Shown: piece after piece, positions 15,408-32,358 of the stretch | Layout of the letters: each line of letters begins with the position of its first letter | Numbering within the stretch: position 1 is the first letter of the stretch | Source: Acidobacteriota bacterium | GTDB lineage: Bacteria > Acidobacteriota > UBA6911 > RPQK01 > JAJDTT01 | DNA: 64,000 nt | Assembly: GCA_965209055.1 (NCBI GenBank) | Contig: OZ242374.1 | Coordinates: 320,001 to 384,000, forward strand | Reading direction: 5' to 3' | Made by a program: the position numbers and the translations under genes | The notes under the pieces: model-generated | What the model was told of the DNA's origin: nothing | The model's database searches: none | The model's input: only the letters and a program-made list of their open reading frames with translations

Positions 15408-16463
15408 GTGCCCCTAGTCCAAGCCGAAACCTTGCGCCGGATCGGCCACCAGTTGTTCGAGGCCGCCGGATGCGATCCCGAAGACGCCCGGGTCGTCACC
15501 CATCACCTGGTGGAGTCGAACCTCTTCGGCCACGACTCCCACGGGGTCATCCGCTACCCGGAATACATGGACGCCATCCGGACGGGGCGTTTCCAGGCCA
15601 AGGCCCAACCCAGGGTGGTGCGGGACCATCCCTCCTGCGCGGTGGTGGACGCCGCCGGCGCGCTGGGTCAGGTGGGCGCCGCCTTCGCCACCCGCCTGGC
15701 CATGGACAAGGCTTCCCGCCAGGGAGTGGCCGCGGTGGCGCTGCGGAACACGAGCCACGTGGGCCGGGTCGGGGCCTACCCGCTGATGGTGGGACGGGCC
15801 GGAATGATCGGCCAGGCCTTTGTCAACGGGGGCCGCTTCGGGAATCAGATCGCTCCCTTCGGTGGCATCGACGCGCGTCTCACCACCGATCCTCTGGCCT
15901 TCGCGGCGCCCCGGCGGGACGCGGAGCCCATCTTCCTGGACATGACCACGTCGGTGGCCGCCGAGGGCAAGGTGCGGGTCGCTTCCTACGCCGGAAAACA
16001 GGTGCCGGAAGGATGGCTCATCGATCACCATGGGCGCCCGACCACCGATCCCGACAGTTTTAGCGCCACGCCGAAAGGCGCCATTCTGCCCCTGGGAGGA
16101 ATCGCCTCTCACAAGGGCTACGGCATGAGCCTCATGGTGGAGCTTCTGGCCGGGACCTTGAGCGGCCAGGGCTGTTGTGTCGGAGAGTCGGAGATGGTCA
16201 GCAACGGCATGCTCCTGGCGGTCCACCGGATCGACCACTTCATCGACCCGGAGGACTACTACCAGGAGGTGGAGGCGCTGATCCGGTACGTGCGGTCGAG
16301 TCCTCCCGCGCCCGGCTTCAAGGAGATCCTGCTTCCGGGGGAGCCCGAGCTCCGGTCGGCCCGCCGAAGAGAAGCGGATGGAATCGACCTCGACGACAAG
16401 ACCTGGTCCCTCATCGGCGCGGACCTGGAACGCTTCGGCTTGCCCGTTCCGCCGGCCGGCTAG
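15408..16463 (+). CDS. Ldh_2 family (ComC/AllD/YbiC-type) NAD(P)-dependent hydroxyacid dehydrogenase
   Basis: GHDSHG, HVGRVG, LDMTTS, GKV, HKGYG, LLPGE motifs. Confidence 0.9.
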   Translation: MPLVQAETLRRIGHQLFEAAGCDPEDARVVTHHLVESNLFGHDSHGVIRYPEYMDAIRTGRFQAKAQPRVVRDHPSCAVVDAAGALGQVGAAFATRLAMDKASRQGVAAVALRNTSHVGRVGAYPLMVGRAGMIGQAFVNGGRFGNQIAPFGGIDARLTTDPLAFAAPRRDAEPIFLDMTTSVAAEGKVRVASYAGKQVPEGWLIDHHGRPTTDPDSFSATPKGAILPLGGIASHKGYGMSLMVELLAGTLSGQGCCVGESEMVSNGMLLAVHRIDHFIDPEDYYQEVEALIRYVRSSPPAPGFKEILLPGEPELRSARRREADGIDLDDKTWSLIGADLERFGLPVPPAG

Positions 16464-16490
16464 CACTCGTCTCAGGAAAGGAATGCCCCT

Positions 16491-17534
16491 TTGCCCAGAT
16501 TTTCCCCACAGGCTCTGAGGGAACTCGGCTATCGGCTCTTCCAGGCCGCGGGTTGCCGTTCGGAGGATGCCCGGGCCGTGGTGGACCACCTGGTGGAGTC
16601 GAGCCTCTTCGGCCACGATTCCCATGGAGCCATCCGGTTCTACGAGTACGCCCAAGGGATTCGCGACGGACGCTTCAATCCCGGCGCCCGGCCCAAGGTG
16701 GTCCGGGAGCGCCCCTGCTCGGCGGTGGTGGACGGAGGAGGCGCCCTGGGACAGGTGGGCGCCGCCTTCGCGACTCGCATCGCCATGGACAAGGCTCGGG
16801 ACCATGGCATGGCGACGGTCACGCTGCGCAACACCTGTCACATCGGCCGGGTGGGCACCTATCCGTTGATGGCCGCCCGGGCCGGCTTCATGGCCCAGCT
16901 CTTCGCCAACGCCGGCCACCTGGGGGCTCAGGTGATTCCCTTCGGGGGCCGGGAAGGGCGGCTGTCCACCAATCCAATGGCCTTCGCCGCTCCCCGCCGC
17001 GGCCACGAACCGCTGCTGTTGGACATGACCACCTCGGTGGTGGCCGAAGGGAAGGTCCGCGTGGCCATCAACCGCGGCGAGTCCATCCCCGAGGGTTGGG
17101 CCGTAGACGCCCAGGGCCGTTCCACCACCGATCCGAGGCAGGTCAAATCCGATCCGCCCGGGGCGCTCCTTCCGCTGGGTGGGGTGGTGGCTCACAAGGG
17201 CTACGGCCTGTCCATGATGGTGGAAATCATGGGAGGAGCCGTGGGCGGGGAGGGCTGCGCGGCCGGCGCCCCCAAGTTCGTCAGCAACGGAGTGCTCCTG
17301 ACCGTCTACCACATCGAGCACTTCACCGGCCTGGAGACCTACTACGACGAACTGGACGCCATGATCGCCCACGTTCGGACCAGCCGCCTGGCTCCCGGGT
17401 TCCAGGAGATCCTGCTTCCCGGCGAGCCCGAATTCCGGAGCGCCCGGAGGCGGGAGGCGGAAGGCATCGAGGTGGATGACGAGACCTGGGGTCAGATCCG
17501 CCAGCAGATGGAGTATTTCGGGGTCGGAGAGTAG
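16491..17534 (+). CDS. Ldh_2 family dehydrogenase, tandem paralog
   Basis: Same motifs; TTG start behind AGGAAAGGA. Confidence 0.9.
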   Translation: MPRFSPQALRELGYRLFQAAGCRSEDARAVVDHLVESSLFGHDSHGAIRFYEYAQGIRDGRFNPGARPKVVRERPCSAVVDGGGALGQVGAAFATRIAMDKARDHGMATVTLRNTCHIGRVGTYPLMAARAGFMAQLFANAGHLGAQVIPFGGREGRLSTNPMAFAAPRRGHEPLLLDMTTSVVAEGKVRVAINRGESIPEGWAVDAQGRSTTDPRQVKSDPPGALLPLGGVVAHKGYGLSMMVEIMGGAVGGEGCAAGAPKFVSNGVLLTVYHIEHFTGLETYYDELDAMIAHVRTSRLAPGFQEILLPGEPEFRSARRREAEGIEVDDETWGQIRQQMEYFGVGE

Positions 17535-17539
17535 GAGGG

Positions 17540-17554
17540 GGGACTGTTAGTCCC
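17540..17554 (+). repeat. Left att core, GGGACTGTTAGTCCC
   Basis: Identical to 29284-29298; internally symmetric GGGA-(7 nt)-TCCC. Confidence 0.88.
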
Positions 17555-17591
17555 AACTGTCCCACAGTCAACGACTACCGAACGTTAACGT

Positions 17592-17604
17592 TTTCAATAT
17601 GTTA
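17592..17604 (+). promoter_or_regulatory. IHF-like binding site in the left att arm
   Basis: TTTCAATATGTTA, one mismatch to WATCAANNNNTTR, between the core and the arm repeats. Confidence 0.5.
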
Positions 17605-17658
17605 CCGGGTTCTTCGCTGGACCGGTGAGGTGGTTGACTCCCTTTGTTTGACATGCTG

Positions 17659-17679
17659 AACAGGCAACAAACAGGCAGC
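17659..17679 (+). repeat. Putative integrase arm-type sites (left)
   Basis: Tandem AACAGGCA units; GGCAACAAACAGGCA (17663-17677) recurs exactly at 29175-29189. Confidence 0.7.
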
Positions 17680-17778
17680 TGAATCGGTTTCTGAAAGCCG
17701 ACGTGCCCGTTTTCCCCTTCCGTTGCCTGGCTCAGAGACCTTATCAATTGGGGATTATCCAGTTGACTTGACATATTC

Positions 17779-18021
17779 CTACGGAACCTCCTGGGATTTC
17801 GTCCGATAGGACCACGTTCTGTGCTTATGACCATGACCTATCAAGGTCAGACTCACCTGGCCAATCCCGCCATTGCGACACGCCTGAACGATGACCTCTT
17901 CGCGTAGCAACTCCTCCAACTTCTGTTCCAACAGGTCATAGATCTTGGGTGCTGCCGAGTCTGTAAGTTGTTCCCTGTTCCCCGATCCGACGGTTACCAC
18001 ATCGGCATGATCGTTCATCAT
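17779..18021 (-). CDS. Small hypothetical protein in the island
   Basis: 80-aa ORF with an AGGAG RBS; no recognised motif. Confidence 0.45.
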   Translation of the reverse strand: MMNDHADVVTVGSGNREQLTDSAAPKIYDLLEQKLEELLREEVIVQACRNGGIGQVSLTLIGHGHKHRTWSYRTKSQEVP

Positions 18022-18531
18022 CTCCTAGCCTTTCCCAAAGATTTCTTTGTGCCGAGCTGGTCTGCCGGAGGCCGAAGGTGTCCGGCTTCGAACGGCTCGG
18101 CATTCCCAAGAATCGGCATCCCCGGCAAGTGTACTACGGCACGGTGGGGAAGACCCGGCGCTACTTGGTGTTCAAACTGCCGATTGCCGTCGAGGACGAC
18201 CGGGTCGTCCTCGACGGTGTCGATCCGGAGCCTGTGGCCACCAAGGGTCTGCGCTCCTGGATAGCGGCGCACCGGCGGTGGAGGATCGCTCCGTCTCAGG
18301 TGTGATCGCGATGACCACTCTCGACCGCCGCAAAGGTTTTTGGAGACTCGTTTCGGGTGTGCGTCAAGGGGTCTCGCGCCCGATCCGGGAGTGTGAATGG
18401 GACATGGGGGGTGGATTCACAAAAAGCGGTCCCGGTGATTCACACCTCCGCTTTCCCCGATCTGTTTTCCTTTCAGTCAGTTACGGCCCCATGCCCTGGG
18501 GTCCGCGTGGCCGCTCCGGGAGATCGGAGGT

Positions 18532-18631
18532 GGACGGGAGCGACCCCCCCTTTTTGCTGCCCGGTGCGGGCGCGGGGGTGTTGCGCAATTCACATTTGCG
18601 CAACACCCCCTGGGGGGGGTCGCTCCCGTCC
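18532..18631. repeat. Nested perfect inverted repeats (19-bp outer stem, 15-bp inner stem)
   Basis: 18532-18550 pairs with 18613-18631; 18574-18588 pairs with 18596-18610 around the loop TTCACAT. Confidence 0.9.
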
Positions 18632-19100
18632 CAAATATCCTTGCAGGAAGGCCCGGAGAAACCCCGTCTGTGCGCTTCCACGCAAAGACCGGACCACAAA
18701 GAGAGTTGCTGACGCACCGGAGAGAGACCCCATGAAGTGTCGGTATCCGGTTCTGGTTCTGGCTGGTTTGGCGGTAGTGACCGGGCACTACCAACAATGA
18801 CCCCTTTACCGGGCCGGGAGACAATGCCGTGCAGAATCTGATCGCCTTTCAGGATCTTCCGTTCGTACCGTGATCCAGGTGTCGTATTCCGCGGTCTCGG
18901 GCATCAATGTTACGCTGGCCGGTGTTTTCCAGCAGCCAGGAAGCCGCCTTACGCTTGATGTCTCGCCAGAATCAATCGACGAACTTGGGGTAGAATTGGT
19001 CTTGGAGGCGTTCCGCGAGGTGCGAACGGACACCGCGCCTAGCCAAGCCTCTTGCGGACACTCGCAGTTCAACTGATTGTCCGGCATCCAAGGGAGGATC

Positions 19101-21713
19101 ATGGCACCGCGCGGCAGCAAGGCGAGGCGGAACATCGAGACTTACGCGCACTCCGATAAGGAACGTGTCAACAACCCGCCGGTCGGATTGGTGACACCGG
19201 AGACAGATAGAGACGCTGGCGGTCAGCCCTACGCCCACGACCCGCATCTCGACCCTCAACTCTCCTGGGCCGGCAAGGCGGAGCACACATCCTTCGACGT
19301 ACCGACGGTCTCACTGCATGTGCACGAGCGGATCGACCCGCGTACGATTATCGAAGCGGTACGCAAGCCGAACGGCACCAAACGGCAGATGTCGCTGTTC
19401 GCTTCACCAAGTGAGAACCCGCCGCTCCGCCAAGCTATCGAGTTCTACAGGCACCGCCACAACTGGACCAACCGGCTGATCGCCGGTGACAGCCTTCTGG
19501 TCATGAACAGCATGATCGAGAAGGAGGGCTTGGGAGGACACGTCCAGATGGTCTACATCGACCCGCCTTACGGAATCCGCTACGGCTCCAACTTCCAGCC
19601 TTTCGTGAACCGGCGCGACGTGAGGGACGGCCGAGATGAGGATCTTACCCATGAGCCGGAGACGATCCGTGCTTTCCGAGATACTTGGGAGCTTGGCATC
19701 CACTCCTATCTCTCGCATCTGCGGGATCGTTTGTTGCTGGCGCGTGAACTACTCCATGAAACCGGAAGCTGCTTCGTACAGATCGGCGATGAGAACGTAC
19801 ACCACGTCCGGGAGGTGCTGGACGAGGTATTTGGGACGCACAATTATGTTACGCAGATCTATTTTTCGACCACAGGTGGGTTCGCTTCGTCAACGCTGAG
19901 CAGGGTCGGCGATTACCTTGTTTGGTATGCACGCGATCGATCCCGCATCAAGTGTCATCAGCTCTTCCAGGGCAAGCCGGGAATGGATACCGGAGATGCC
20001 GCCTATAAGAATCTCGAACTGGCGGACGGATCCCGAAGGTCTATGTCACGGGAGGAGCGCAACGGTCGTGAGCCGATTCCCGACGGCGCCCGAATCTTCA
20101 CCTATGACAATCTCCAGGGTTCAGGTTCGGCGAGCATTGACACGCCCTTTGAGTTCAACGGTGAAATATTCCGGCCCAATAGAAACAACCACTGGAAGGC
20201 GGCTTGGCCGGACGGAATGGCGCGGCTCAGGGCCGCCCGCCGCATCGGTCGTGTTGGGAATACGCTCCGGTACATTCGGTATATGGAGGACAATCCGGTA
20301 AACCCGCTGACAAATTCGTGGATGGATACGTCGTTTGCGGGGTTTGCGACGAACAAAAAGTACGTTGTAGAAACCAACCCCAAGGTTGTCCAGCGCTGTA
20401 TCTTGATGACCACGGATCCCGGCGATCTGGTCTTCGATCCGACCTGCGGTAGCGGAACCAGTGCGTACGTTGCCGAGCAATGGGGGCGGCGCTGGATCAC
20501 CTGCGACACGTCTCGAGTGGCAACCGCCTTGGCCAAACAGCGTCTGATGACCGCCAAGTTCGACTACTACGATCTTGCGCAAGCGGATGAAGGAGTTGGC
20601 AGCGGCTTCAAATATAAAACCGTGCCTCATGTGACCCTCGGCTCCATCGCCAACAACCCGGACATCAGCGAGGGTATGACACGGGAGCAGATCGGTCACG
20701 CCATCACGCGGCATGCGTCGCAGAAGACACTTTACGATCAGCCTGCTACCGACCGTACCAAAGCTCGCGTGACAGGCCCGTTCACGGTCGAAGCGGTCCC
20801 CGCCCCGTCTGTGCTCCCACTCGACGACATTTCCGAGGGTGAGGTGTTGCCCGCCGACGCCTCGGTGGCGCGCACGGGGCCGACGATTCGACAAGGCGAC
20901 TGGCGCGACGAACTTCTGAAGACCGGCATTCGCGGCAAGGCTGGCCAACACGTCTCGTTCGTGCGGCTGGAGCCGTTGCCTGGCGCAAAATGGCTTCACG
21001 CCGAGGGCGAGACGAGGCTCGACGAAGCTCCGGGACAAGGTGCTCCAGACACCGCGCCTAGCTCTCGCGTAGTCGTATCGTTCGGGCCGGATCACGCACC
21101 GATGGAGCAACGTCAAGTGGCGCTCGCGATCGAGGAATCGCATCGCTTGGTTCCGAAGCCGGCGGTCATCGTCTTCGCGGCATTTCAGTTCGACCCCGAG
21201 ACGTCGAAGGACATCGACGAGACAAACTGGCCCGGCGTCACGTTGCTCAAGGCGCAGATGAACGCCGACCTACTGACCGATGACCTCAAGAAGAAACGGG
21301 CGAGTAACGAGAGCTTCTGGCTCATTGGCCAACCGGACGTGGCGCTGGAGCACATTCCGGAAGGGGAGGACGAAGGCAGATTCCAGGTCTCGGTCCGAGG
21401 ATTCGACTACTACAACACAAAGACCGGCAATGTGGAGTCCGGCGGAGCCGACCGGATCGCACTCTGGATGCTTGACCCTGACTACGACGGGCGTAGCCTG
21501 TTCCCGCACCAAGTGTTTTTCCCGATGGCCAGCGCCAAGGATGGCTGGGCTAAGCTGGCCCGGAGCCTCAAAGCCGAGATCGACGCGACACTGATGACAT
21601 CCTACCATGGGACCGTCTCCCTCCCCTTCAAGTCTGGCAAGCAGGGGCGCGTAGCGGTCAAGATCGTGGACGACCGAGGTGTCGAGAGCCTCAAGATCGT
21701 GGAATTGGAGTAG
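19101..21713 (+). CDS. mod: Type III R-M methyltransferase (Mod, beta-class N6-adenine MTase)
   Basis: YIDPPY catalytic motif precedes the FDPTCGSGT SAM motif; GGGAGG RBS before the ATG at 19101. Confidence 0.92.
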   Translation: MAPRGSKARRNIETYAHSDKERVNNPPVGLVTPETDRDAGGQPYAHDPHLDPQLSWAGKAEHTSFDVPTVSLHVHERIDPRTIIEAVRKPNGTKRQMSLFASPSENPPLRQAIEFYRHRHNWTNRLIAGDSLLVMNSMIEKEGLGGHVQMVYIDPPYGIRYGSNFQPFVNRRDVRDGRDEDLTHEPETIRAFRDTWELGIHSYLSHLRDRLLLARELLHETGSCFVQIGDENVHHVREVLDEVFGTHNYVTQIYFSTTGGFASSTLSRVGDYLVWYARDRSRIKCHQLFQGKPGMDTGDAAYKNLELADGSRRSMSREERNGREPIPDGARIFTYDNLQGSGSASIDTPFEFNGEIFRPNRNNHWKAAWPDGMARLRAARRIGRVGNTLRYIRYMEDNPVNPLTNSWMDTSFAGFATNKKYVVETNPKVVQRCILMTTDPGDLVFDPTCGSGTSAYVAEQWGRRWITCDTSRVATALAKQRLMTAKFDYYDLAQADEGVGSGFKYKTVPHVTLGSIANNPDISEGMTREQIGHAITRHASQKTLYDQPATDRTKARVTGPFTVEAVPAPSVLPLDDISEGEVLPADASVARTGPTIRQGDWRDELLKTGIRGKAGQHVSFVRLEPLPGAKWLHAEGETRLDEAPGQGAPDTAPSSRVVVSFGPDHAPMEQRQVALAIEESHRLVPKPAVIVFAAFQFDPETSKDIDETNWPGVTLLKAQMNADLLTDDLKKKRASNESFWLIGQPDVALEHIPEGEDEGRFQVSVRGFDYYNTKTGNVESGGADRIALWMLDPDYDGRSLFPHQVFFPMASAKDGWAKLARSLKAEIDATLMTSYHGTVSLPFKSGKQGRVAVKIVDDRGVESLKIVELE

Positions 21714-22078
21714 TGGAGGCTTCAGTGCGCCCGGGGACCATGACTGCCAAAGACCAAGAGCGGCTGGCTTCCCGTATCGGCCTATCCATGAATGCCATCG
21801 CCGCGTTTTGCGACCGCTGGCAAGTGGAGGAACTTTCACTATTCGGTTCCGTGCTGCGCGATGATTTTGGGTGTGACAGCGACATCGACATACTGATCCG
21901 TTTCAAGACTCATCGTGCTCCGGGGCTGTTTGGGATTGCCGGAATGGAGCGGGAGCTGGCTGAATTGCTCGACCGCAGGGTCGATTTGGTGAACCGCGCC
22001 GCCATCGAGGAGAGTCGAAACTACATTCGTCGAAAGGCGATCCTGGAATCCGCGCAGGTTGTCTATGCCGCGCGATGA
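21713..22078 (+). CDS. Minimal nucleotidyltransferase (MNT) antitoxin
   Basis: LFGSVLRDDFGCDSDIDILI (GSX10DXD) and RVDLV. The start may instead be the ATG at 21740. Confidence 0.9.
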   Translation: MEASVRPGTMTAKDQERLASRIGLSMNAIAAFCDRWQVEELSLFGSVLRDDFGCDSDIDILIRFKTHRAPGLFGIAGMERELAELLDRRVDLVNRAAIEESRNYIRRKAILESAQVVYAAR

Positions 22079-22409
22079 CTCAGCGTATCTGCTGGACATG
22101 CTGCTTGCCGCGCGCGACGCGGTGTCCTTCACAGTAGGCATTTCGTACGACGAATTCGTACGAGACCGGCGGACCCAACTCTCTGTTCTGAAGTCGGTGG
22201 AGATCGTGGGCGAGGCGGCCGCACATGTGAGCGATGAAGCGAAGCGGGCGCACCCGGCCATCCCCTGGCGGGAGATCGTGGGCATCCGCAACCGTCTCGT
22301 ACACGTCTACTTCGACATAGACCTGCTACTCGTCTGGAATACGGTTCGTAATGACCTCCCGGTTCTGATTGGGCAATTAGAGCCCCTAGTACCACCGGAG
22401 GCCGGATAG
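22065..22409 (+). CDS. HEPN (DUF86/HepT-like) RNase toxin
   Basis: EIVGEAA and RNRLVHVY (RX4HXY). Confidence 0.9.
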   Translation: MPRDDSAYLLDMLLAARDAVSFTVGISYDEFVRDRRTQLSVLKSVEIVGEAAAHVSDEAKRAHPAIPWREIVGIRNRLVHVYFDIDLLLVWNTVRNDLPVLIGQLEPLVPPEAG

Positions 22410-25219
22410 TGCCACGCTCTACCATCGACCGGCTGATCGTCAATTCTCCCTACGAGGAACCGGCACAGCATTGGAGCTACGATCGGACTACGCGCCTGTT
22501 CGATCTTGCAGATGGTCGCAGACCCGCAGGATATGTGGTGGCATCGGGAGAGTCCCGGGCGTTCGACGATCCCGGCGCGTTTCGTGAAATTCCTCTGGTC
22601 AACCGAATCCGAGAGCGGGTCAAGGCGTGGCGTGCCGCTAGCTACCCCGGCGTGACAGGGATCACGAAGCGTCTTTTGGAGTACTGGCAGGATCCCGAAG
22701 AGTTCGAGAGCCGCCGGTTTTTCTTCTGCCAGCTTGAGGCGGTCGAAACGCTCATCTGGCTCACCGAAGCGCCGTCGGCCGAACGGGTGGGTATCGATAT
22801 CCCGTCCGACAGCGGCGCGTTCACGCGGCTCTGCGCCAAGATGGCGACCGGCTCCGGCAAGACCGTCGTCATGGCCATGGTCATCGCCTGGCATGTCCTC
22901 AACAAGGTGACAAACCCCCGAGATACCCGGTTCGCCCAGAATGTCCTTGTGGTCGCCCCCGGCCTTACGGTGCGGAGCCGACTGGCCGTTCTCGGACCGT
23001 CTCATGCCGAGAACTATTACGAGGCCTTCCGCGTCGTGCCTCCGGCACTGTTCGACAAGCTGCGCCGGGGCAAGGTCGTAATCCGCAACTGGCACGCGCT
23101 CAACTGGGAGACGGACGAGCGGATCGCCCGCAAGCGTAGCGTCGACAAGCGTGGCGCTAAGAGCGACGAAGCCTATGTCCGTGACGTGCTCGGGGACATG
23201 GCGAGCGCGAGGAACATTCTGGTGGTCAACGACGAGGCGCATCATGCATGGCGAGTGCCAGCCGGAGCCAAGATCAAGGGCGTCGCCAAGGGCACCGTCG
23301 AGGAAGCGACCAAATGGGTTGGCGGGTTGGACCGCATCCACCGGGCGCGGGGTATCCTCGTCTGCTACGACTTCTCCGCGACACCCTTCGTGCCATCGGG
23401 CAAGCGGAGTTCCGAAGAAGCGCTGTTCGGCTGGATCGTGAGCGATTTTGGCTTGAACGACGCCATCGAGTCCGGCTTGGTGAAGACGCCCCGGGTCGTG
23501 ATTCGCGACGATGCGGTGCCCGACGCCAAGACCTACAAGTCCCGCCTCTACCACATCTACAACGACTCTGAGGTCAGGGATGACCTTAACCGGCCGGCCA
23601 AGCCGGCGGAACCATTGCCGGACCTAGTGACGAACGGATACTACCTGCTCGGATACGACTGGCGCGAAACCGCCAGGGAATGGGCGGCGCGTGGAAATGC
23701 TACGCCTCCCGTGATGATCACAGTTGCTAACCGCACCCAGACAGCGGCCCGGATCAAACATGCGTTCGACCGCAAGCGGGTTCACATCGACGAACTCTGC
23801 GACCCCGAGCGGACGCTACATATCGACTCGAAGGTGCTCGCGACGGCAGAAGCCGCCGAGGAGCCGATCGCCAAGGTTGCAGCCGAAGGTAGCCGAGACC
23901 ACCCCGATAAGGTCCGAGTACGCAAATTGACGAAAAAGCAGCAGGCTGAACTGTTGCGTCAGCAGGTGGATACGGTGGGTCGGCTTGGACACGCAGGAGA
24001 ACGGATTCAGAACGTAATTTCGGTCGGAATGCTCTCGGAGGGCTGGGATGCGAAGACTGTCACCCACATCATGGGCCTCCGCGCCTTCACGAGTCAGCTT
24101 CTCTGTGAGCAGGTGGTGGGACGTGGACTGCGCCGCACGTCCTACGACGTGAACCCGAAAACCAGGCTTTTCGAGCCGGAATACGTCAACGTCTTCGGCG
24201 TACCCTTCACCTTCCTGCCGCACGAGGGCGGCGGGGATGGCCCACCCCCGCCGCCGAAACCCAAGACCGCTATTGAACCCGTGAGGGACAGACAACAGCT
24301 TTTCGAGATTTCATGGCCCAATGTCGTGCGTATCAATCACACCTACCGGCCGCGTCTGTCGCTCGATTGGGACCGGATAATGCCCCTCGTGCTCGATGCC
24401 GCCCGAACCGCACAGCTCGCCGAGCTGGCGCCCACGATCGACGGCAAGCCGGACACCACGAAGATTGATTCCATAGACCTCCAAGACCTCGCCCTCGAAT
24501 TCCGCACCCAGCGCATCATCTTCGAGACTGCGCGGGACGTGTACGACCAGATTCGGGAAAACTGGCCGGGCGAACGGACATTCCTGCTCGCGCAACTTGT
24601 GCGGCTCGTCGAACAGTTCATCCGGTCCGACAAGATCGCAATTATCCCCCCACTATTCCAAGTCGACGAGCTCAAGCGCCGCCTCGTCGTCACGCTAAAC
24701 ATGACCAAGGTGGTACAACACATCTGGGAAGCGATCCGCCACGAGAACACGGAGAGGCTAGAGCCGGTCTTCGACCGGGATCAGCCGATCCGCGCCACTG
24801 GAGACATGCGCACATGGTATACGGGTAAGCCTTGCGAACCCACGGCCCACAGCCACATCAACTTCTGCGTCTTCGACAGCGCGTGGGAAGCGTCCGAGGC
24901 TTTCGTGCTTGACAACGCCCCCGAGGTGGCCACGTGGGTTAAGAACGACCATCTTGGCTTCGAAGTGTTGTACGTCCATCGAGGCGTAGTGCGGAAATAC
25001 CGTCCCGACTTCCTTATCCGTCTCACGTCGGGCGACATGCTGGTGTTAGAGACCAAGGGCCGAGACACCGACCGCGAACGGACCAAGCGCATGTTCCTCG
25101 CCGAATGGGTCGAAGCCGTAAATCAGCATGGCGGGTTTGGACGCTGGGCTTGGGATGTCTCGACGACACCTGGCGACATCTACGGCATCCTCGAACGCCA
25201 CTTGCGCGGCGCTGCCTGA
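22409..25219 (+). CDS. res: Type III R-M restriction subunit (Res), DEAH helicase plus PD-(D/E)xK nuclease
   Basis: MATGSGKT, NDEAHH, SATP, MLSEGWD, QVVGRGLR, PDFLI...LETKG. Confidence 0.92.
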   Translation: MPRSTIDRLIVNSPYEEPAQHWSYDRTTRLFDLADGRRPAGYVVASGESRAFDDPGAFREIPLVNRIRERVKAWRAASYPGVTGITKRLLEYWQDPEEFESRRFFFCQLEAVETLIWLTEAPSAERVGIDIPSDSGAFTRLCAKMATGSGKTVVMAMVIAWHVLNKVTNPRDTRFAQNVLVVAPGLTVRSRLAVLGPSHAENYYEAFRVVPPALFDKLRRGKVVIRNWHALNWETDERIARKRSVDKRGAKSDEAYVRDVLGDMASARNILVVNDEAHHAWRVPAGAKIKGVAKGTVEEATKWVGGLDRIHRARGILVCYDFSATPFVPSGKRSSEEALFGWIVSDFGLNDAIESGLVKTPRVVIRDDAVPDAKTYKSRLYHIYNDSEVRDDLNRPAKPAEPLPDLVTNGYYLLGYDWRETAREWAARGNATPPVMITVANRTQTAARIKHAFDRKRVHIDELCDPERTLHIDSKVLATAEAAEEPIAKVAAEGSRDHPDKVRVRKLTKKQQAELLRQQVDTVGRLGHAGERIQNVISVGMLSEGWDAKTVTHIMGLRAFTSQLLCEQVVGRGLRRTSYDVNPKTRLFEPEYVNVFGVPFTFLPHEGGGDGPPPPPKPKTAIEPVRDRQQLFEISWPNVVRINHTYRPRLSLDWDRIMPLVLDAARTAQLAELAPTIDGKPDTTKIDSIDLQDLALEFRTQRIIFETARDVYDQIRENWPGERTFLLAQLVRLVEQFIRSDKIAIIPPLFQVDELKRRLVVTLNMTKVVQHIWEAIRHENTERLEPVFDRDQPIRATGDMRTWYTGKPCEPTAHSHINFCVFDSAWEASEAFVLDNAPEVATWVKNDHLGFEVLYVHRGVVRKYRPDFLIRLTSGDMLVLETKGRDTDRERTKRMFLAEWVEAVNQHGGFGRWAWDVSTTPGDIYGILERHLRGAA

Positions 25220-25405
25220 CCTGTACGAGTAGCCGGGCATGAGCCAAGGACGGACCGCGACTCACAAAGCTCGTCGCTCGCGACCCTACAAGGGGTTGTC
25301 GACGTTACTTGGTCGATTGCCGGATCCGAAGGCCGTCGGCATCTCGCGGTAGGCAGATCGCAAGGGACCGCGCACCCCAACTGTGCCGCCGCTGAAGGAG
25401 GAACG

Positions 25406-25981
25406 ATGATCTACCCGAAAGAAACGCTCACCCTAAAATTGTCAATGCCCCAGGAAGCCTGGGACCATTGGAAGTGCGGCCTGGGTAGGACACCGGTAGG
25501 AGCCGTTGTCCGAGAAGGGATTGAAGAGGTCCGGACACACCCCAAGGCACTCGCGAAACTAAAGCACCAATGCAAACATGTACGCGAATCTTCGGCGGCC
25601 TTTTCGAAAGATCTGCCAGAACCATCGGAGGCGGTCGTCATTGAGATTCAACTGCCCGGTGCTGACTGGATCGAGGTCTGTCAGCTGATCGGGGAACTAG
25701 ACACAGCCTTACACGACGGGCCGGTCAGCGACCAAGAACTACTCGCGGCGGTGATACTCGAGAGCGGAAGCTGGAAACAAACCGCAAAGGCCGAGTTTCG
25801 AGCTGGGTGGTGTACAAACCAACTGATTTCCTCTTCCACTAGCGGTCTGCTGAGATTCCACCTGGGAAAGCGGGGAAAGTTCGTAGCAGCAGTAGCAGCA
25901 GGAGCCACCGTGGTGATCGCAGCGACCACTGTTGCTCAAGCCGTGGCCTTATTTTGGGGGCTGTACTGCGAGTGCGGATAG
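25406..25981 (+). CDS. Hypothetical protein with a C-terminal hydrophobic helix
   Basis: AAGGAGG RBS; FVAAVAAGATVVIAATTVAQAVALFW putative TM segment. Confidence 0.6.
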   Translation: MIYPKETLTLKLSMPQEAWDHWKCGLGRTPVGAVVREGIEEVRTHPKALAKLKHQCKHVRESSAAFSKDLPEPSEAVVIEIQLPGADWIEVCQLIGELDTALHDGPVSDQELLAAVILESGSWKQTAKAEFRAGWCTNQLISSSTSGLLRFHLGKRGKFVAAVAAGATVVIAATTVAQAVALFWGLYCECG

Positions 25982-26132
25982 GGCGTGGTGATGACGACTG
26001 AACCGGCACGAGATCGACTGGGGGCAGAGGAGAGATGTCAATCTAACAACTCCTGACCATCATCGCTCCCTCTTCCGTTACGATCGCCACTGGACCTTCG
26101 TTACGCTCGACAGACGATGATGCAAGCCGATG

Positions 26133-27503
26133 TTACCCGCGCTTAAGTAAGAGATTCAGCTCACGTTGTACGACTACGTACGGAAGACGCCTAAGGCTGA
26201 ACCGCTCGTAAAGTGGTGACAGCAGCTCGTGGACCACCTCGGCCAGATTGGCACTCAGGGTGTCCACACCAACATTCGTCGATAGCGAAACATCGTTGTC
26301 CCGGCAAATGCCCCCGGCCCAGACGGTGTCCCGCATCGGGTTTGCCCACGCGTACAGTCGCCTCCTGCGAAGTCCGGTATACCGGGCAACAAAGGAGACC
26401 GAATGGCCGCCTATGCGATCGGCAAGATACGCAGCGTGCCGGAGTGCTTCTCCGACCCGCACAATCGGTAGCGTCGGGTCCACACAGGTGCCTGGTTGAA
26501 TCCGAGCCTCCGCTGCCCGATCACCGTCCTCCTCGTAGCCTCGAAGCAAAAAGGCGAGTCCATCGGGTGTTATGCGCCAGAAGTCGGCGTGGGCAGCATC
26601 GTGAAGGCCTCGCTGAGGTGCGCTCGGATCGTCCCCGAGCCAGCACTCTAGGGCACCGTCGCGGGCGTAGGGTTCGATCTCCGGCCGCGTTGGCACCCAC
26701 CACGGGGGCCAGCCTGTGAGACGCGGTGCATCGGCCAAAACATCCAGCAGGTCACGAAGTCCTCCGAAGAATCTTCCGCCGTCAACATGGTAGGCGAACG
26801 TAAAGAATCCGTGCGGACAACGTGCCGGGCTGTCGGGCGGGAGTCCGGCGATTCTGTTTCGCCAGATACCTTCAGACTCCGACACCCACCGATCCAGTCG
26901 GGATATTTCCGTCTGATTTCTTTCCGATGAAGGCCTGCCACTCAGCAGATCCCGGATGTGATCAAGCAGCTCATCTTGCCGCGCCCGCAAGCACCTTCCA
27001 AGTAGTTCGTCCCACTCGCGTCCATTGTCAGGTTGTGCGCTTTGCGGCCCCGGTCGGCGGATGTAGATTGTGTGTTGTCGAACTATCCGATCTTCCGGAC
27101 CGTTGCGCTTCGCGCGGATGGGAACTCGGTGACCGCCCGGAACACCAATGATCGGGTGAGTGACGCCCGAGGTGGGATGTGGGACGTAATGCACCGAACA
27201 ATGAAACGCAGGTTCTGCATAATTGTGAACGATCCCGTTCACCTTGTCCTGAGAGTAGGCGTCGAGAGTATCCGGTCGTCCATCGCCAGTCCTAAAACCG
27301 GCGTCCGTCTCTGTGAGTCCGATGATCACATGTCCCCCACCATGGTTCGCCAATGCAAGCAAGGCCTGGGCGAGTTTCGCTTTGTGTTCATTGTTCCCAG
27401 TGAGGTCCAGCCAGTTCTTGATCTCAATGTCGAGTGCTTCCTGCGGCTCGCGCAGTAGATCCGCAAGTCGATTGTGTTCTGGCGATGGCGACGTCACGCT
27501 CAT
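26133..27503 (-). CDS. Schlafen/AlbA_2-domain protein with an uncharacterised C-terminal domain
   Basis: EALDIEIK, ALANHGGGHVIIG and IYIRRPG motifs; AAGGAGG RBS. Confidence 0.82.
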   Translation of the reverse strand: MSVTSPSPEHNRLADLLREPQEALDIEIKNWLDLTGNNEHKAKLAQALLALANHGGGHVIIGLTETDAGFRTGDGRPDTLDAYSQDKVNGIVHNYAEPAFHCSVHYVPHPTSGVTHPIIGVPGGHRVPIRAKRNGPEDRIVRQHTIYIRRPGPQSAQPDNGREWDELLGRCLRARQDELLDHIRDLLSGRPSSERNQTEISRLDRWVSESEGIWRNRIAGLPPDSPARCPHGFFTFAYHVDGGRFFGGLRDLLDVLADAPRLTGWPPWWVPTRPEIEPYARDGALECWLGDDPSAPQRGLHDAAHADFWRITPDGLAFLLRGYEEDGDRAAEARIQPGTCVDPTLPIVRVGEALRHAAYLADRIGGHSVSFVARYTGLRRRRLYAWANPMRDTVWAGGICRDNDVSLSTNVGVDTLSANLAEVVHELLSPLYERFSLRRLPYVVVQRELNLLLKRG

Positions 27504-27901
27504 CGAGCGAGCCTCCTTTGCAGGCGTTTCAGGTCTGTCCTGAAGCCAACCATAGCATCCCTGACACGCCCCGTCCCATCGCGAAACCGCCTGCGGCGTC
27601 GCAACGCCGTCCTTTTCATCGAGACGAGCCGCCCTTCATCGCTATCGACCTGACCCGATTATGGACTTTGCCAACAATATTTCGCGGTCCACGGGGAAGG
27701 AGCATTCCCCCGATTCGCGGTGGCTCTCGGCCTCGGCCAGCAGATCTTCAGGACCGGGGCTTCGGGATTCCACAATAATTCTCCGAGAGAAGCTGTAGAG
27801 AGCGAGTCTCAGGGAGATAGAGGAGAGTGTCTGGGTCTTACCCTTGGGAAACAATTGCGGGATGTGGATCCGAGGCCGTCCTGCATTGATGACATGCGCG
27901 C

Positions 27902-28147
27902 GTCCCCAGTTCCACCATCAGCGTGGCGACCGTGGCCCAGTACCTGGACAAGGTCATCAGCACGATTCGCAAACTTGCCGATCTGAACATCATCCAAACC
28001 AGAGCCGACATGGATACTGCCGGCCGACATCGTCGCCCTGGAGGACCTGAACGCCGACGTCGATTCTCTGGAGCCGTGGTACGATTCGCCTCACGGCGAA
28101 GAACCCGGATCCAGAAAGGAGGAGATGCATGGGCATCTACAAGGTGA
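27902..28147 (+). pseudogene. Possible degenerate HTH excisionase upstream of the integrase
   Basis: ISVATVAQYLDKVISTIRKL resembles the Xis/HTH_17 pattern; in-frame stop at 27890 and no good start codon. Confidence 0.35.
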
Positions 28148-29217
28148 AGGATCGCCGGGGGAGACGACGCTATGTCGTCAGCAAGTACTGGCCGAACGGA
28201 TCCGGTCGGCTCCGAATGTACGCCCCCAACTACCGGAGCGCACAGGCGCTTCAAACACGAATCGAGTCCAGCATCCTGGACGGCACCTGGAAGCAGCTCA
28301 AGGAGGAGCTCGCCGGTGGGAAACGCACCATCTGGACGGTCCGGAGCTTCTACGAGCGTTTCTTCGAGGAGTACTGCAAACCTCGCATGCGCTCCCGGCG
28401 TCGCTATGCGCTCTCGTTCAAGAGCCTCAACGCCATGGTGGGGAACATTCCCCTGAAGGAGTTCCAACGCAAGGACCTTCACCGCTACGTCGCGAAACGG
28501 AAGGGGCAGGTCCAGCCGGCCACGGTGAACCGGGACATTGCCGCCATCAGCAAGCTGTTTTCCTACGCGCTGGAGTGCGGGGAAGTGGACACGCACCCGC
28601 TGGTGAGATTCCCCAAACTCAAAGAACCCAAGAAGGTCTTCCGGCCCTTGACGGTTCAACAGTTCCGCGACCTGGTCGAGGCGATGGACAACCCTTACCT
28701 GCAAGCCATGGTTGCGGTGATCGGCGAGACGGGGATACGAAAAGGCGAAGCCTTGTCGCTCACCTGGAAACGGGTGGACCTATCCCGGAGGCTGCTATGG
28801 GTGGAATTCACCAAGAACGACGAGCCGAGGGAGATCCCGCTGTCGAAGTACGCTGCTGGATATCTGGCCGGTCTGGTTCGTTACCTGAACACCCCTTACG
28901 TCTTCGTCAACACCCGGACCGGGACGAGATGGGTGAATCCGGACAAGCCGTTGCGTCGAGCCGCCGAGCGGGTGGGGTTGAAGGTCGGGTTTCACGACCT
29001 GAGACGATTCCGGTGCAGCCATTGGCTGATGCAGGGGGTGGACGTGAGGACGGTGCAGAAGCTGATGGGTCACTCGGCGATCAGCACGACGATGCGCTAC
29101 GCGGGGTACGTCAGTTCCCATGCGCTTGCCAGCATTCGGGAGGCACAGGCTACCGAAGACTCACAAACGCGCCCGGCAACAAACAGGCAACAGCTAGGAA
29201 ATAGGAGGAATGATTAG
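28129..29217 (+). CDS. Phage-type tyrosine integrase
   Basis: Full catalytic set: TGIR (R), TKN (K), HDLR (H, R), LMGH (H), TTMRY (Y). N-terminal arm-binding-like and SAM-like regions; GGAGGAG RBS. Confidence 0.95.
   Translation: MGIYKVKDRRGRRRYVVSKYWPNGSGRLRMYAPNYRSAQALQTRIESSILDGTWKQLKEELAGGKRTIWTVRSFYERFFEEYCKPRMRSRRRYALSFKSLNAMVGNIPLKEFQRKDLHRYVAKRKGQVQPATVNRDIAAISKLFSYALECGEVDTHPLVRFPKLKEPKKVFRPLTVQQFRDLVEAMDNPYLQAMVAVIGETGIRKGEALSLTWKRVDLSRRLLWVEFTKNDEPREIPLSKYAAGYLAGLVRYLNTPYVFVNTRTGTRWVNPDKPLRRAAERVGLKVGFHDLRRFRCSHWLMQGVDVRTVQKLMGHSAISTTMRYAGYVSSHALASIREAQATEDSQTRPATNRQQLGNRRND
29175..29193 (+). repeat. Putative integrase arm-type sites (right)
   Basis: GGCAACAAACAGGCAACAG within the integrase 3' tail; matches the left-end repeat. 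Confidence 0.7.
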
Positions 29218-29232
29218 AGGAGAGAGGGGGCG

Positions 29233-29245
29233 TAAACCTTTGAAA
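29233..29245 (-). promoter_or_regulatory. IHF-like site in the right att arm
   Basis: Reverse strand reads TTTCAAAGGTTTA. Confidence 0.5.
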
Positions 29246-29283
29246 ATAAATGCGCTCGACCTAATCTCAGCAGGACAGAGCAC

Positions 29284-29298
29284 GGGACTGTTAGTCCC
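29284..29298 (+). repeat. Right att core, GGGACTGTTAGTCCC
   Basis: Identical to 17540-17554; 66 bp downstream of the integrase stop. Confidence 0.88.
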
Positions 29299-29344
29299 CC
29301 ATTCTTCCTTTCCCCGATCCTGCTCGGGGTCACTGTTCCACTGG

Positions 29345-29403
29345 AGTTCGGCGGTAAGAAAACCGCCGCTCCAGTTCGGCGGTTAGGAAACCGCCGCCCC
29401 TAT
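29345..29403 (-). repeat. Two tandem REP-like hairpins
   Basis: AGTTCGGCGGT-AAGAAA-ACCGCCGC and AGTTCGGCGGT-TAGGAA-ACCGCCGC; on the minus strand they are preceded by GGAG and ATAG feet. Confidence 0.65.
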
Positions 29404-32334: not shown

Positions 32335-32358
32335 GGAGGGGGGACATTCCTGTCCCCC
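32335..32358 (+). repeat. REP-like hairpin GGAGGGGGGAC-ATTCCT-GTCCCCC
   Basis: Same arms as the island's reconstructed empty site, with a different loop. Confidence 0.7.

Follow-up and report, generated by a model that had tools for sequence, protein, structure and literature searches.

We analyzed a 64,000-nucleotide (nt) stretch of an Acidobacteriota genome (the window, positions 320001 to 384000 of the single 6.08-Mb contig of the source genome, G000), in which an 11.7-kb island separates a gene of the Ldh_2 dehydrogenase family from an fdhF-like gene. This island is very probably an integrative element moved by a lambda-like, that is, arm-site-bearing, tyrosine integrase that uses a hairpin resembling repetitive extragenic palindromic (REP) sequences as its chromosomal attachment site (attB). 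The element appears to be tRNA-derived and to have spread to about 26 sites because its target is multicopy. The junction anatomy and its register, the copy number, the apparent tRNA ancestry of one arm, the empty sites and the cargo are all legible in the sequences. A preliminary description of the window had proposed a REP-like hairpin as attB of this island; its observation was confirmed, and its interpretation is supported on sequence grounds with one correction, the link to a tRNA.

The window holds exactly two copies of the 15-mer GGGACTGTTAGTCCC (17540-17554 and 29284-29298), which bound an island spanning 17540-29298. This finding confirmed the exact-repeat boundary claimed earlier. 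In shuffled windows this 15-mer gave a mean of 0.12 matches, and two were reached in 1 of 100 shuffles, but shuffling is the wrong null for it, as the whole genome holds 37 copies. The GC content of the island (0.57-0.61) is below that of the flanks (0.65-0.68). The stop codon TAG of the Ldh_2 gene (17532-17534) is part of the 5' TAGGAG foot of the hairpin. The following features make up the two ends of the island and its host flanks:

16491-17534, plus strand: Ldh_2 malate/L-lactate dehydrogenase family gene, left host flank (Pfam PF02615, 362.7 bits).
17532-17543, plus strand: B side of attL, the TAGGAG foot and the G-rich 5' hairpin arm; the same foot and arm precede intact hairpins, e.g., at genome position 172931.
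17540-17554, plus strand: attL core, a 15-bp identity block with the putative 7-bp overlap CTGTTAG at 17544-17550 between GGGA and TCCC; the register is set by elements sharing 7 bp only.
17555-17746, plus strand: left end (P' arm), conserved in the family; its identity to the minimal element is 91%, and it aligns in 15 of the 15 left ends shown.
28129-29217, plus strand: tyrosine integrase of 362 amino acids (aa), reading towards attR (Pfam Phage_integrase PF00589 at residues 174-325, 93.8 bits against a cut-off of 27.1).
29252-29287, plus strand: P arm, aligning as a vestigial 5' half of tRNA-Arg(UCU) (acceptor strand remnant, D-arm and 5' anticodon-stem strand).
29284-29298, plus strand: attR core, 15-bp identity block (exact 15-mer match) with the overlap CTGTTAG at 29288-29294.
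29295-29310, plus strand: B' side, the C-rich 3' hairpin arm and a ATTCTTCC tail; the same tail follows hairpins at loci L007 and L008 of relatives.
29400-32237, minus strand: fdhF-like gene, right host flank, convergent with Ldh_2, its 3' end facing the attR core.

Across the genome, conserved left and right ends (L- and R-ends) in pairs delimit 25 elements with sizes of 2.7 to 25 kb, and a 26th is cut by the contig end. In 25 of 25 paired elements, attL and attR carry the same 7-mer in a fixed register, the one proposed earlier for the window as GGGA-CTGTTAG-TCCC, and the host flanks of all of them differ, each starting exactly at the core. The attP cores (those of the element itself) all read (C/G)GGA-7 nt-TCCC, and 23 of the 25 rebuilt targets pair perfectly over a stem of 6 bp or more. 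The elements use six different 7-mers, with a shared end identity of 15, 14, 11, 10 or 7 bp:

CTGTTAG: 8 elements including the window's, identity block 15 bp.
CTAACAG: 7 elements, identity block 14 bp.
TTTCCAA, GGCGAT stems: 4 elements, identity block 11 bp.
TTTCTAA: 1 element, identity block 11 bp.
TTTCCTA: 3 elements, identity block 7 bp only.
TTTCCTA: 1 element, identity block 10 bp.
TTTCCAA, GGGGGT stem: 1 element, identity block 7 bp only.

Because four elements (three TTTCCTA and one TTTCCAA) share nothing else between attL and attR, strand exchange would be confined to the 7-mer. CTAACAG is the reverse complement of CTGTTAG, and its seven elements occupy the same hairpin type in the opposite orientation. 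In the tree, the integrases of these elements lie scattered among those of the CTGTTAG group, with identities to its members of up to 357 of 362 positions; in relative G004, integrases identical at 351 of 361 positions go with CTTCCAG and TTTCTAG. Since near-identical integrases use different 7-mers, the address lies in the attP DNA and not in the protein. The earlier suggestion that the loop sets specificity fits, as each of the six 7-mers matches a hairpin loop variant. An address in the attP DNA agrees with lambda-type integrases, where the identity of the two overlaps matters and not the overlap sequence. Promiscuity of the 7-bp overlap is mentioned in the abstract of PMC7736782.

The hairpin itself belongs to a large family, as the preliminary description had supposed. 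The pattern GGGGGAC-N3-8-GTCCCCC has 87 sites genome-wide, and perfect hairpins of five stem types number about 650 in all (253 GGCGGT, 151 GGCGAT, 128 GGGGAC, 115 GGCGAC and 12 GGGGGT), with TTCCA, TTCCTA, TTTCCT, ATTCCT, AGTCTT and TGTTA as recurrent loops. In 73 of the 128 GGGGAC hairpins, and in about half of those of the other stem types, one side but not the other has a GGAG within 10 nt. A foot had been claimed for the hairpin in the window and is present, reading (T)AGGAG rather than GTAG. In 27 of 48 hairpins with the TAGGAG foot, its TAG closes an open frame of at least 100 codons, compared with 329 of 3000 random TAGs. The additional hairpins noted earlier downstream of the target, together with a sibling that has the same arms, were found at these positions (strand not applicable):

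29349-29368 and 29377-29396: two hairpins of the GGCGGT/ACCGCC type (253 genome copies), downstream of fdhF.
32339-32358: unoccupied sibling hairpin GGGGGAC-ATTCCT-GTCCCCC, with arms the same as the GGGGGAC/GTCCCCC of the target.

Hairpins of the GGCGGT type are present in nine of nine genomes of the genus, at 40 to 250 copies versus 5 to 15 for a reversed-pattern control. Because they are abundant in relative G001 (56 hairpins, control 10), which has no integrase match, the hairpins exist independently of the element; for this stem type, we rejected the idea that they are integrase footprints. That the hairpin is a mere terminator was rejected by copy number and sequence conservation. The loops at orthologous sites differ between all species compared, so hairpin turnover is fast. 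A search for the REP-associated tyrosine transposase (RAYT) proposed earlier gave a gene of 252 aa at G000 1142805-1143563 (L001 1336-2094, minus strand), which has REP-like hairpins on both sides and directly adjoins attR of the TTTCTAA-type element, but its 77.4 bits on NF047646 stay under the cut-off of 80. A second candidate, on L002, is weaker (51.9 bits).

The preliminary description had seen no tRNA at either end of the island. This holds for intact genes, as ARAGORN finds none in the window, but positions 29252-29287 align to the 5' half of tRNA-Arg(tct). In relative G003, an integrase identical at 307 of 362 positions (85%) is directly followed by an intact tRNA-Arg(tct). At the far end (attL) of this 47-kb G003 island, the first 42 nt of the tRNA recur and are followed by a homolog of the left end, and the junction falls within the anticodon stem-loop, ACGGA-CTTCTAA-TCCGT, in the same register as in the hairpin targets. 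All 20 REP-targeting R-ends aligned match the tRNA 5' half (13 from G000 and 7 from G004, G005 and G007); by counts from the alignment, one R-end agrees at 28 of 29 tRNA-half positions and that of the window at 22 of 30. A tRNA is not regenerated at such an end, as the R-end keeps the decayed 5' half only, in which ARAGORN calls no gene. We read the family as that of a tRNA anticodon-loop integrase which was probably re-addressed to hairpins resembling the anticodon arm.

It could also be supposed that the tRNA-Arg gene is still the true target and that the hairpin insertions are rare off-target events at pseudo-sites, and the overlap TTTCTAA is indeed a single base from the anticodon loop CTTCTAA. 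We give this next to no credence, because 0 of 25 paired G000 elements lie at a tRNA gene, the tRNA-Arg(tct) of G000 is unoccupied, the sequence of the attP cores has itself shifted to that of hairpin loops, and eight of the eight G004 junctions read are hairpin halves. Of the close homologs, whose att sites the preliminary description had proposed to map, those of G004 use hairpins and the G003 relative uses its tRNA-Arg(tct).

The integrase has 26 full-length paralogs in the genome that are 89 to 97% identical (tblastn), in addition to one broken copy and fragments. It carries the motifs TGIRKGE, HDLRR, MGHS and RY in the expected order, which we take to supply the catalytic Arg, His-x-x-Arg, His/Trp and Tyr by the usual pattern of the family. 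Residues 1-90 have no Pfam match above cut-off (Int_N, 24.8 bits against 27). The minimal element of 2.7 kb consists of the left end, an apparently non-coding module of about 600 nt, the integrase and the right end, with nothing more, and two copies of it at unrelated loci are 99.96% identical across 2718 bp. No Pfam match besides the integrase and no transposase was found in the minimal element. A target-site duplication made by a transposase was rejected as the origin of the repeats, since the minimal element encodes the integrase alone and the conserved ends include the palindrome arms.

A 15-mer, GGCAACAAACAGGCA, is a candidate arm-type site. Of its 55 genome copies, 29 lie in L-ends at exactly 108 nt and 25, in the same orientation, in R-ends at 93 to 96 nt, and one lies elsewhere. 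Such placement corresponds to the layout of the arm-type sites of lambda-like, heterobivalent integrases. The copies in the window and the module are located as follows:

17663-17677, plus strand: candidate arm-type site GGCAACAAACAGGCA, left copy, 108 nt from the junction.
18061-18666, plus strand: conserved module, apparently non-coding, with a 100-nt long hairpin at 18532-18631; the frame of the longest open reading frame (ORF) shifts between copies.
29175-29189, plus strand: candidate arm-type site, second copy, 95 nt before the attR core and within the 3' end of the integrase gene.

The 3' 100 nt of the module form a near-invariant, long branched hairpin (DNA fold of -54.4 kcal/mol, z of -11.3). 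The module was seen in 22 of the 22 element copies examined, and its conserved part has 66 blastn matches in the genome, some of them away from any integrase. Covariation gave no answer here, as the module is too invariant to tell an RNA from a DNA structure, and Rfam returned two matches on the minimal element, both sub-threshold (27.4 bits versus 53.1 and 17.2 versus 37). The module is possibly a replication or transfer origin, an RNA or a separate miniature element. A zinc-ribbon ORF of 131 aa follows it in some elements only (L015 1052-1447; 897-1292 in the mini element); it gives 24 tblastn pieces, is absent from the island in the window, and its conserved N-terminal 45 residues end in a CPxCG motif.

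Such foldable DNA brings to mind an integron-like process, in which the hairpin would be recombined as a folded single strand, as by IntI with attC or XerCD with the CTX phage, and not as a duplex with a 7-bp overlap. Each target and each attP core is a foldable palindrome, every element carries the very stable 100-nt hairpin, and the integrase gives weak NCBIfam matches to XerA and integron-integrase models (102.1 and 61.5 bits). The integron-integrase score is far below its threshold (TIGR02249, 61.5 versus a cut-off of 265), as is a further NCBIfam match (NF011946, 27.7 versus 435); the G003 relative has a normal tRNA gene as its site, with a direct repeat of 42 bp, identical junction 7-mers with paired arm-type motifs about 100 nt to either side are the anatomy of duplex, lambda-type recombination, and a cassette array is absent. 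We therefore consider folded-strand recombination improbable.

By comparing the locus with same-genus genomes, we found the Ldh and fdhF flanks 50 to 230 bp apart and the island absent in seven of eight; the eighth, G005 (L009), has tandem AGTTCGTAG-like repeats after the Ldh ortholog instead of a hairpin. A REP-like hairpin directly follows the Ldh stop in three relatives, with the loop ATTCTT or ATCCTT or with the stem GGGCGAC. The empty Ldh-fdhF site foreseen in the preliminary description is thus present, but its loops differ from the reconstructed TGTTA. The gene on its left is the second of two tandem Ldh_2 paralogs (15408-16463 and 16491-17534) whose DNA is about 70% identical, and the pair is kept in relatives. 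Where G008 and G005 carry elements, the corresponding hairpins of G000 are intact, of the GGGGCGAT-TTCCA type, and have the same flank on their right, and the site of the 20.6-kb G000 element is, in G001, an intact GGGGAC-TGTTC-GTCCCC hairpin, again with the same right flank. Two other element sites have the same stem in relatives, with loops TTTCCT, ATTCCT, ATCCCT or TTTTA. Altogether, at four of four loci tested, the relatives lack the element at the orthologous position.

G000 itself holds a 5-kb locus in which the TGTTA hairpin (172931) is intact; two half-copies match this locus at 98.4% and 99.0% identity, and each of them stops at the core, directly against an element end. The duplicated segment is 170431-175446; its second copy is split at the hairpin into 484586-487100 and 789046-791560, two halves 300 kb apart and mutually inverted, each abutting the left end of an element. 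This suggests that the elements take part in large rearrangements. One might go further and regard all copies as inert relics that owe their spread to segmental duplication and rearrangement and not to insertion by the integrase, since segmental duplications and rearranged element flanks exist in the genome, two elements of 10 to 12 kb carry the same cargo (L136 and L140), and there are orphan element ends and broken integrase genes. The differing host flanks that begin exactly at the core in all 25 elements, the 99.96% identical copies at unrelated loci, the absence from relatives at every locus tested and the 26 intact integrase genes speak against inert relics, an explanation that we find scarcely credible.

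Assembled contigs from independent data offered a further view of the copies. In runs X19 and X20, contigs agree with the island without any difference, and the summed depth of the end and integrase bins is 20 to 50 times that of the cargo bins. Many copies would give such a ratio, even though depth summed over contigs does not measure copy number. In the sponge-metagenome run X1, contigs are about 98 to 99% identical to both flank genes (25 differences in 1238 nt, window 16300-17537; 14 in 1125 nt, 29376-30500), so a close relative lives in this type of sample. Two X1 joints, from 17554 to 29376 and from 17554 to 29372, look like an empty site, but have a side of only 22 nt made of repeat sequence and are not assignable to this locus; the contig joints count neither for nor against excision. 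The element cut by the contig end (G000 6074465-6077182) stops 13 nt short of its right junction and is not continued at the contig start; because the contig stops inside an element that is not resumed there, the circular closure of the assembly lies in or next to a copy of the repeat.

According to the above-described analysis, the integrase would read the two hairpin arms as inverted core sites and exchange strands across a 7-bp overlap made of the loop and its closing pair (GGGA-CTGTTAG-TCCC here). A match between the overlaps of element and target would be needed and would set both the loop variant used and the orientation of insertion. The ancestor would have integrated in the anticodon stem-loop of tRNA-Arg(UCU), with the 7-nt anticodon loop as overlap and the anticodon stem as core sites; the attP "anticodon stem-loop" may then have taken REP loops as its new address while a dead 5' half of the tRNA stayed behind in the P arm, and the element would act as a carrier of defence genes. 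The cleavage positions, the dependence on overlap homology, the double-stranded substrates, current activity and the rise in copy number are parts of this scheme that we infer from the sequence patterns.

Several observations weigh against this scheme. The tree of integrases is unrooted because the next homologs are merely 30 to 36% identical and offer no close outgroup, and the tRNA-first direction accordingly draws on the decayed tRNA half and not on branching order. A TGTTA loop stands at the window's site in none of the relatives, and likewise at two other loci, so that the exact pre-insertion loop at the site of the window is a reconstruction. No excisionase conserved across the family was found, the eight ORFs in the left 1.5 kb having no credible Pfam match, and among the 15 joints listed from assembled contigs there was neither an attP circle junction nor a recombination product. 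Finally, by our tally 17 of 29 TGTTA-loop sites are occupied, as are four of about five GGGGGT/TTTCCT sites, which is unusually high for a target that existed beforehand.

Because of this occupancy of TGTTA sites, we keep a small probability for an element that imports its loop. The integrase would then recognize the stem only and tolerate mismatched overlaps, as in Tn916 and CTnDOT, and intact TGTTA hairpins would be footprints of past visits. Over half of the TGTTA sites being occupied, and the orthologous sites of relatives bearing mostly other loops on the same stem (TTTCCT, ATTCCT, ATCCTT, TTTTA), would both be expected from such behavior. However, resolution of the heteroduplex would leave unlike junctions, and 25 of 25 are identical; many loops of relatives have 6 nt versus 5 nt, which is no simple overlap swap; loops at these sites differ among all species and not in G000 alone; dozens of matching hairpins for the TTTCCAA type are unoccupied; and the empty paralogous copy bears the TGTTA loop. 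Loop import is in our view very unlikely, and we retain insertion into REP-like hairpins through a matched overlap as the preferred reading.

If this reading is extended, the family may be a naturally re-addressable integrase, in which the protein reads a minimal GGA/TCC frame only and the 7 bp of attP, the former anticodon loop, are a mutable address label. We hold this extension tentatively, at somewhat under even chances. With the enzyme unchanged, altering a few bases of attP would be enough to send the element to another REP loop or to reverse its orientation. The element would behave like an insertion sequence (IS) while carrying 20 kb of defence cargo, and REP loops may turn over fast between species in part as an escape from the elements.

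The cargo in the window lies between the conserved module and the integrase and comprises the following genes:

19077-21713, plus strand: type III restriction-modification methyltransferase Mod (PADLOC MTase_III, 525.6 bits; Pfam N6_N4_Mtase).
21713-22078, plus strand: MNT nucleotidyltransferase (Pfam NTP_transf_2, 55.2 bits; PADLOC PDC-S09).
22059-22409, plus strand: HepT-like RNase (Pfam HepT-like, 93.5 bits).
22409-25219, plus strand: type III restriction subunit-like helicase/nuclease Res (Pfam ResIII, 33.1 bits, and PADLOC REase_III, 35.8 bits, both weak).
25406-25981, plus strand: ORF of 191 aa with no family match.
26133-27503, minus strand: protein of 456 aa with a weak Schlafen/AlbA_2 match (Pfam PF04326, 22.5 bits, below the cut-off of 25.3).

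MNT and HepT form a toxin-antitoxin-type pair between Mod and Res. Elsewhere in the family, 153 ORFs of at least 140 aa were surveyed at 20 loci covering 19 other elements, with integrase ORFs left out. Recognizable defence genes were present in 12 of 20 cargo-bearing elements, the window's included, in keeping with the defence cargo claimed at the outset. They are type I restriction-modification (four elements), type ISP, type III and MmeI-like systems, NotI with a D12 methylase, GmrSD with Schlafen, AbiTii with Abi_alpha, and a cas1-cas4-cas3-GSU0053-GSU0054 set; the remaining elements carry leucine-rich repeat (LRR) proteins, transposases or nothing recognizable. The CRISPR-Cas set (Cas1, Cas4, Cas3, GSU0054, GSU0053) lies at L141 4673-12636 (G000 about 3908.8-3916.8 kb) in a 21-kb element of the CTAACAG type. 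The 20.6-kb element contains, at L017 6199-10040, three further, unrelated tyrosine recombinase genes, one with a P4-type arm-binding domain, and may thus have another element nested in it.

Genomic islands whose att site is centred on the anticodon of a tRNA gene (class "A" of Islander) were reportedly described by Williams in 2002. The Islander paper (PMC4383910) gives 2083 of 3919 islands as anticodon-centred and describes elements carrying a tRNA 5' fragment as rare (159 of 3919). Like these islands, the present element has a tyrosine integrase adjoining att, a crossover on a 7-nt loop in a symmetric stem and part of a tRNA, and the G003 member is a plain example at tRNA-Arg(tct). Unlike them, the element in the window is not in a tRNA gene and restores none, and its target is a multicopy repeat and not a single essential gene. 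Tycheposons of Prochlorococcus (bioRxiv 10.1101/2020.12.28.424599) are likewise transposon-like and have tyrosine recombinases, cargo and flanking partial tRNAs, with tRNA-Arg(tct) among the targets; theirs are seven tRNA genes with 1 or 2 elements per genome, whereas a repeat family here hosts about 26 elements in one genome.

For the IS elements that target REP sequences (IS1397, IS621, IS1594 and others), the review PMC3184786 presents REP palindromes as a dispersed, largely neutral landing pad, a use shared by the present family. Those elements move by a DDE or IS110-type transposase and have no cargo, whereas here we find a tyrosine integrase with candidate arm sites and up to about 22 kb of cargo. 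Integron integrases resemble it in being tyrosine recombinases whose attC sites are imperfect palindromes of variable sequence, but IntI uses folded single strands and cassette arrays, while the junctions here are lambda-like. The Nf prophages of Neisseria use multicopy dRS3 repeats as attachment site, and in this they are alike, but their recombinase is of the Piv/IS110 type and not a tyrosine integrase. With integrases of the lambda/HK022 type, the family shares core sites around a 7-bp overlap and arm sites about 100 bp away; theirs is a single chromosomal site, in contrast to the natural radiation of overlaps matched to repeat variants seen here. Our literature search, which left subscription journals mostly outside, found no description of an integrase using REP sequences as attB.

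As a rule, a site-specific integrase depends on one conserved gene for its target, typically a tRNA gene, and this caps its copies at one or a few per genome. It seems that a tRNA-type integrase has here escaped the one-gene limit by taking a repeat family as its target. Since the intermediate steps are still visible (a relative on the tRNA, an overlap that differs from the anticodon loop by one base, the dead half of a tRNA in attP), the case shows how att specificity evolves. The natural attP/attB pairs, which differ only in a 7-bp address and are served by nearly identical enzymes, make the rules of overlap-driven targeting directly testable, and the family may serve multiplexed integration. 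The case also shows in what way REP-like repeats can shape the distribution of defence islands.

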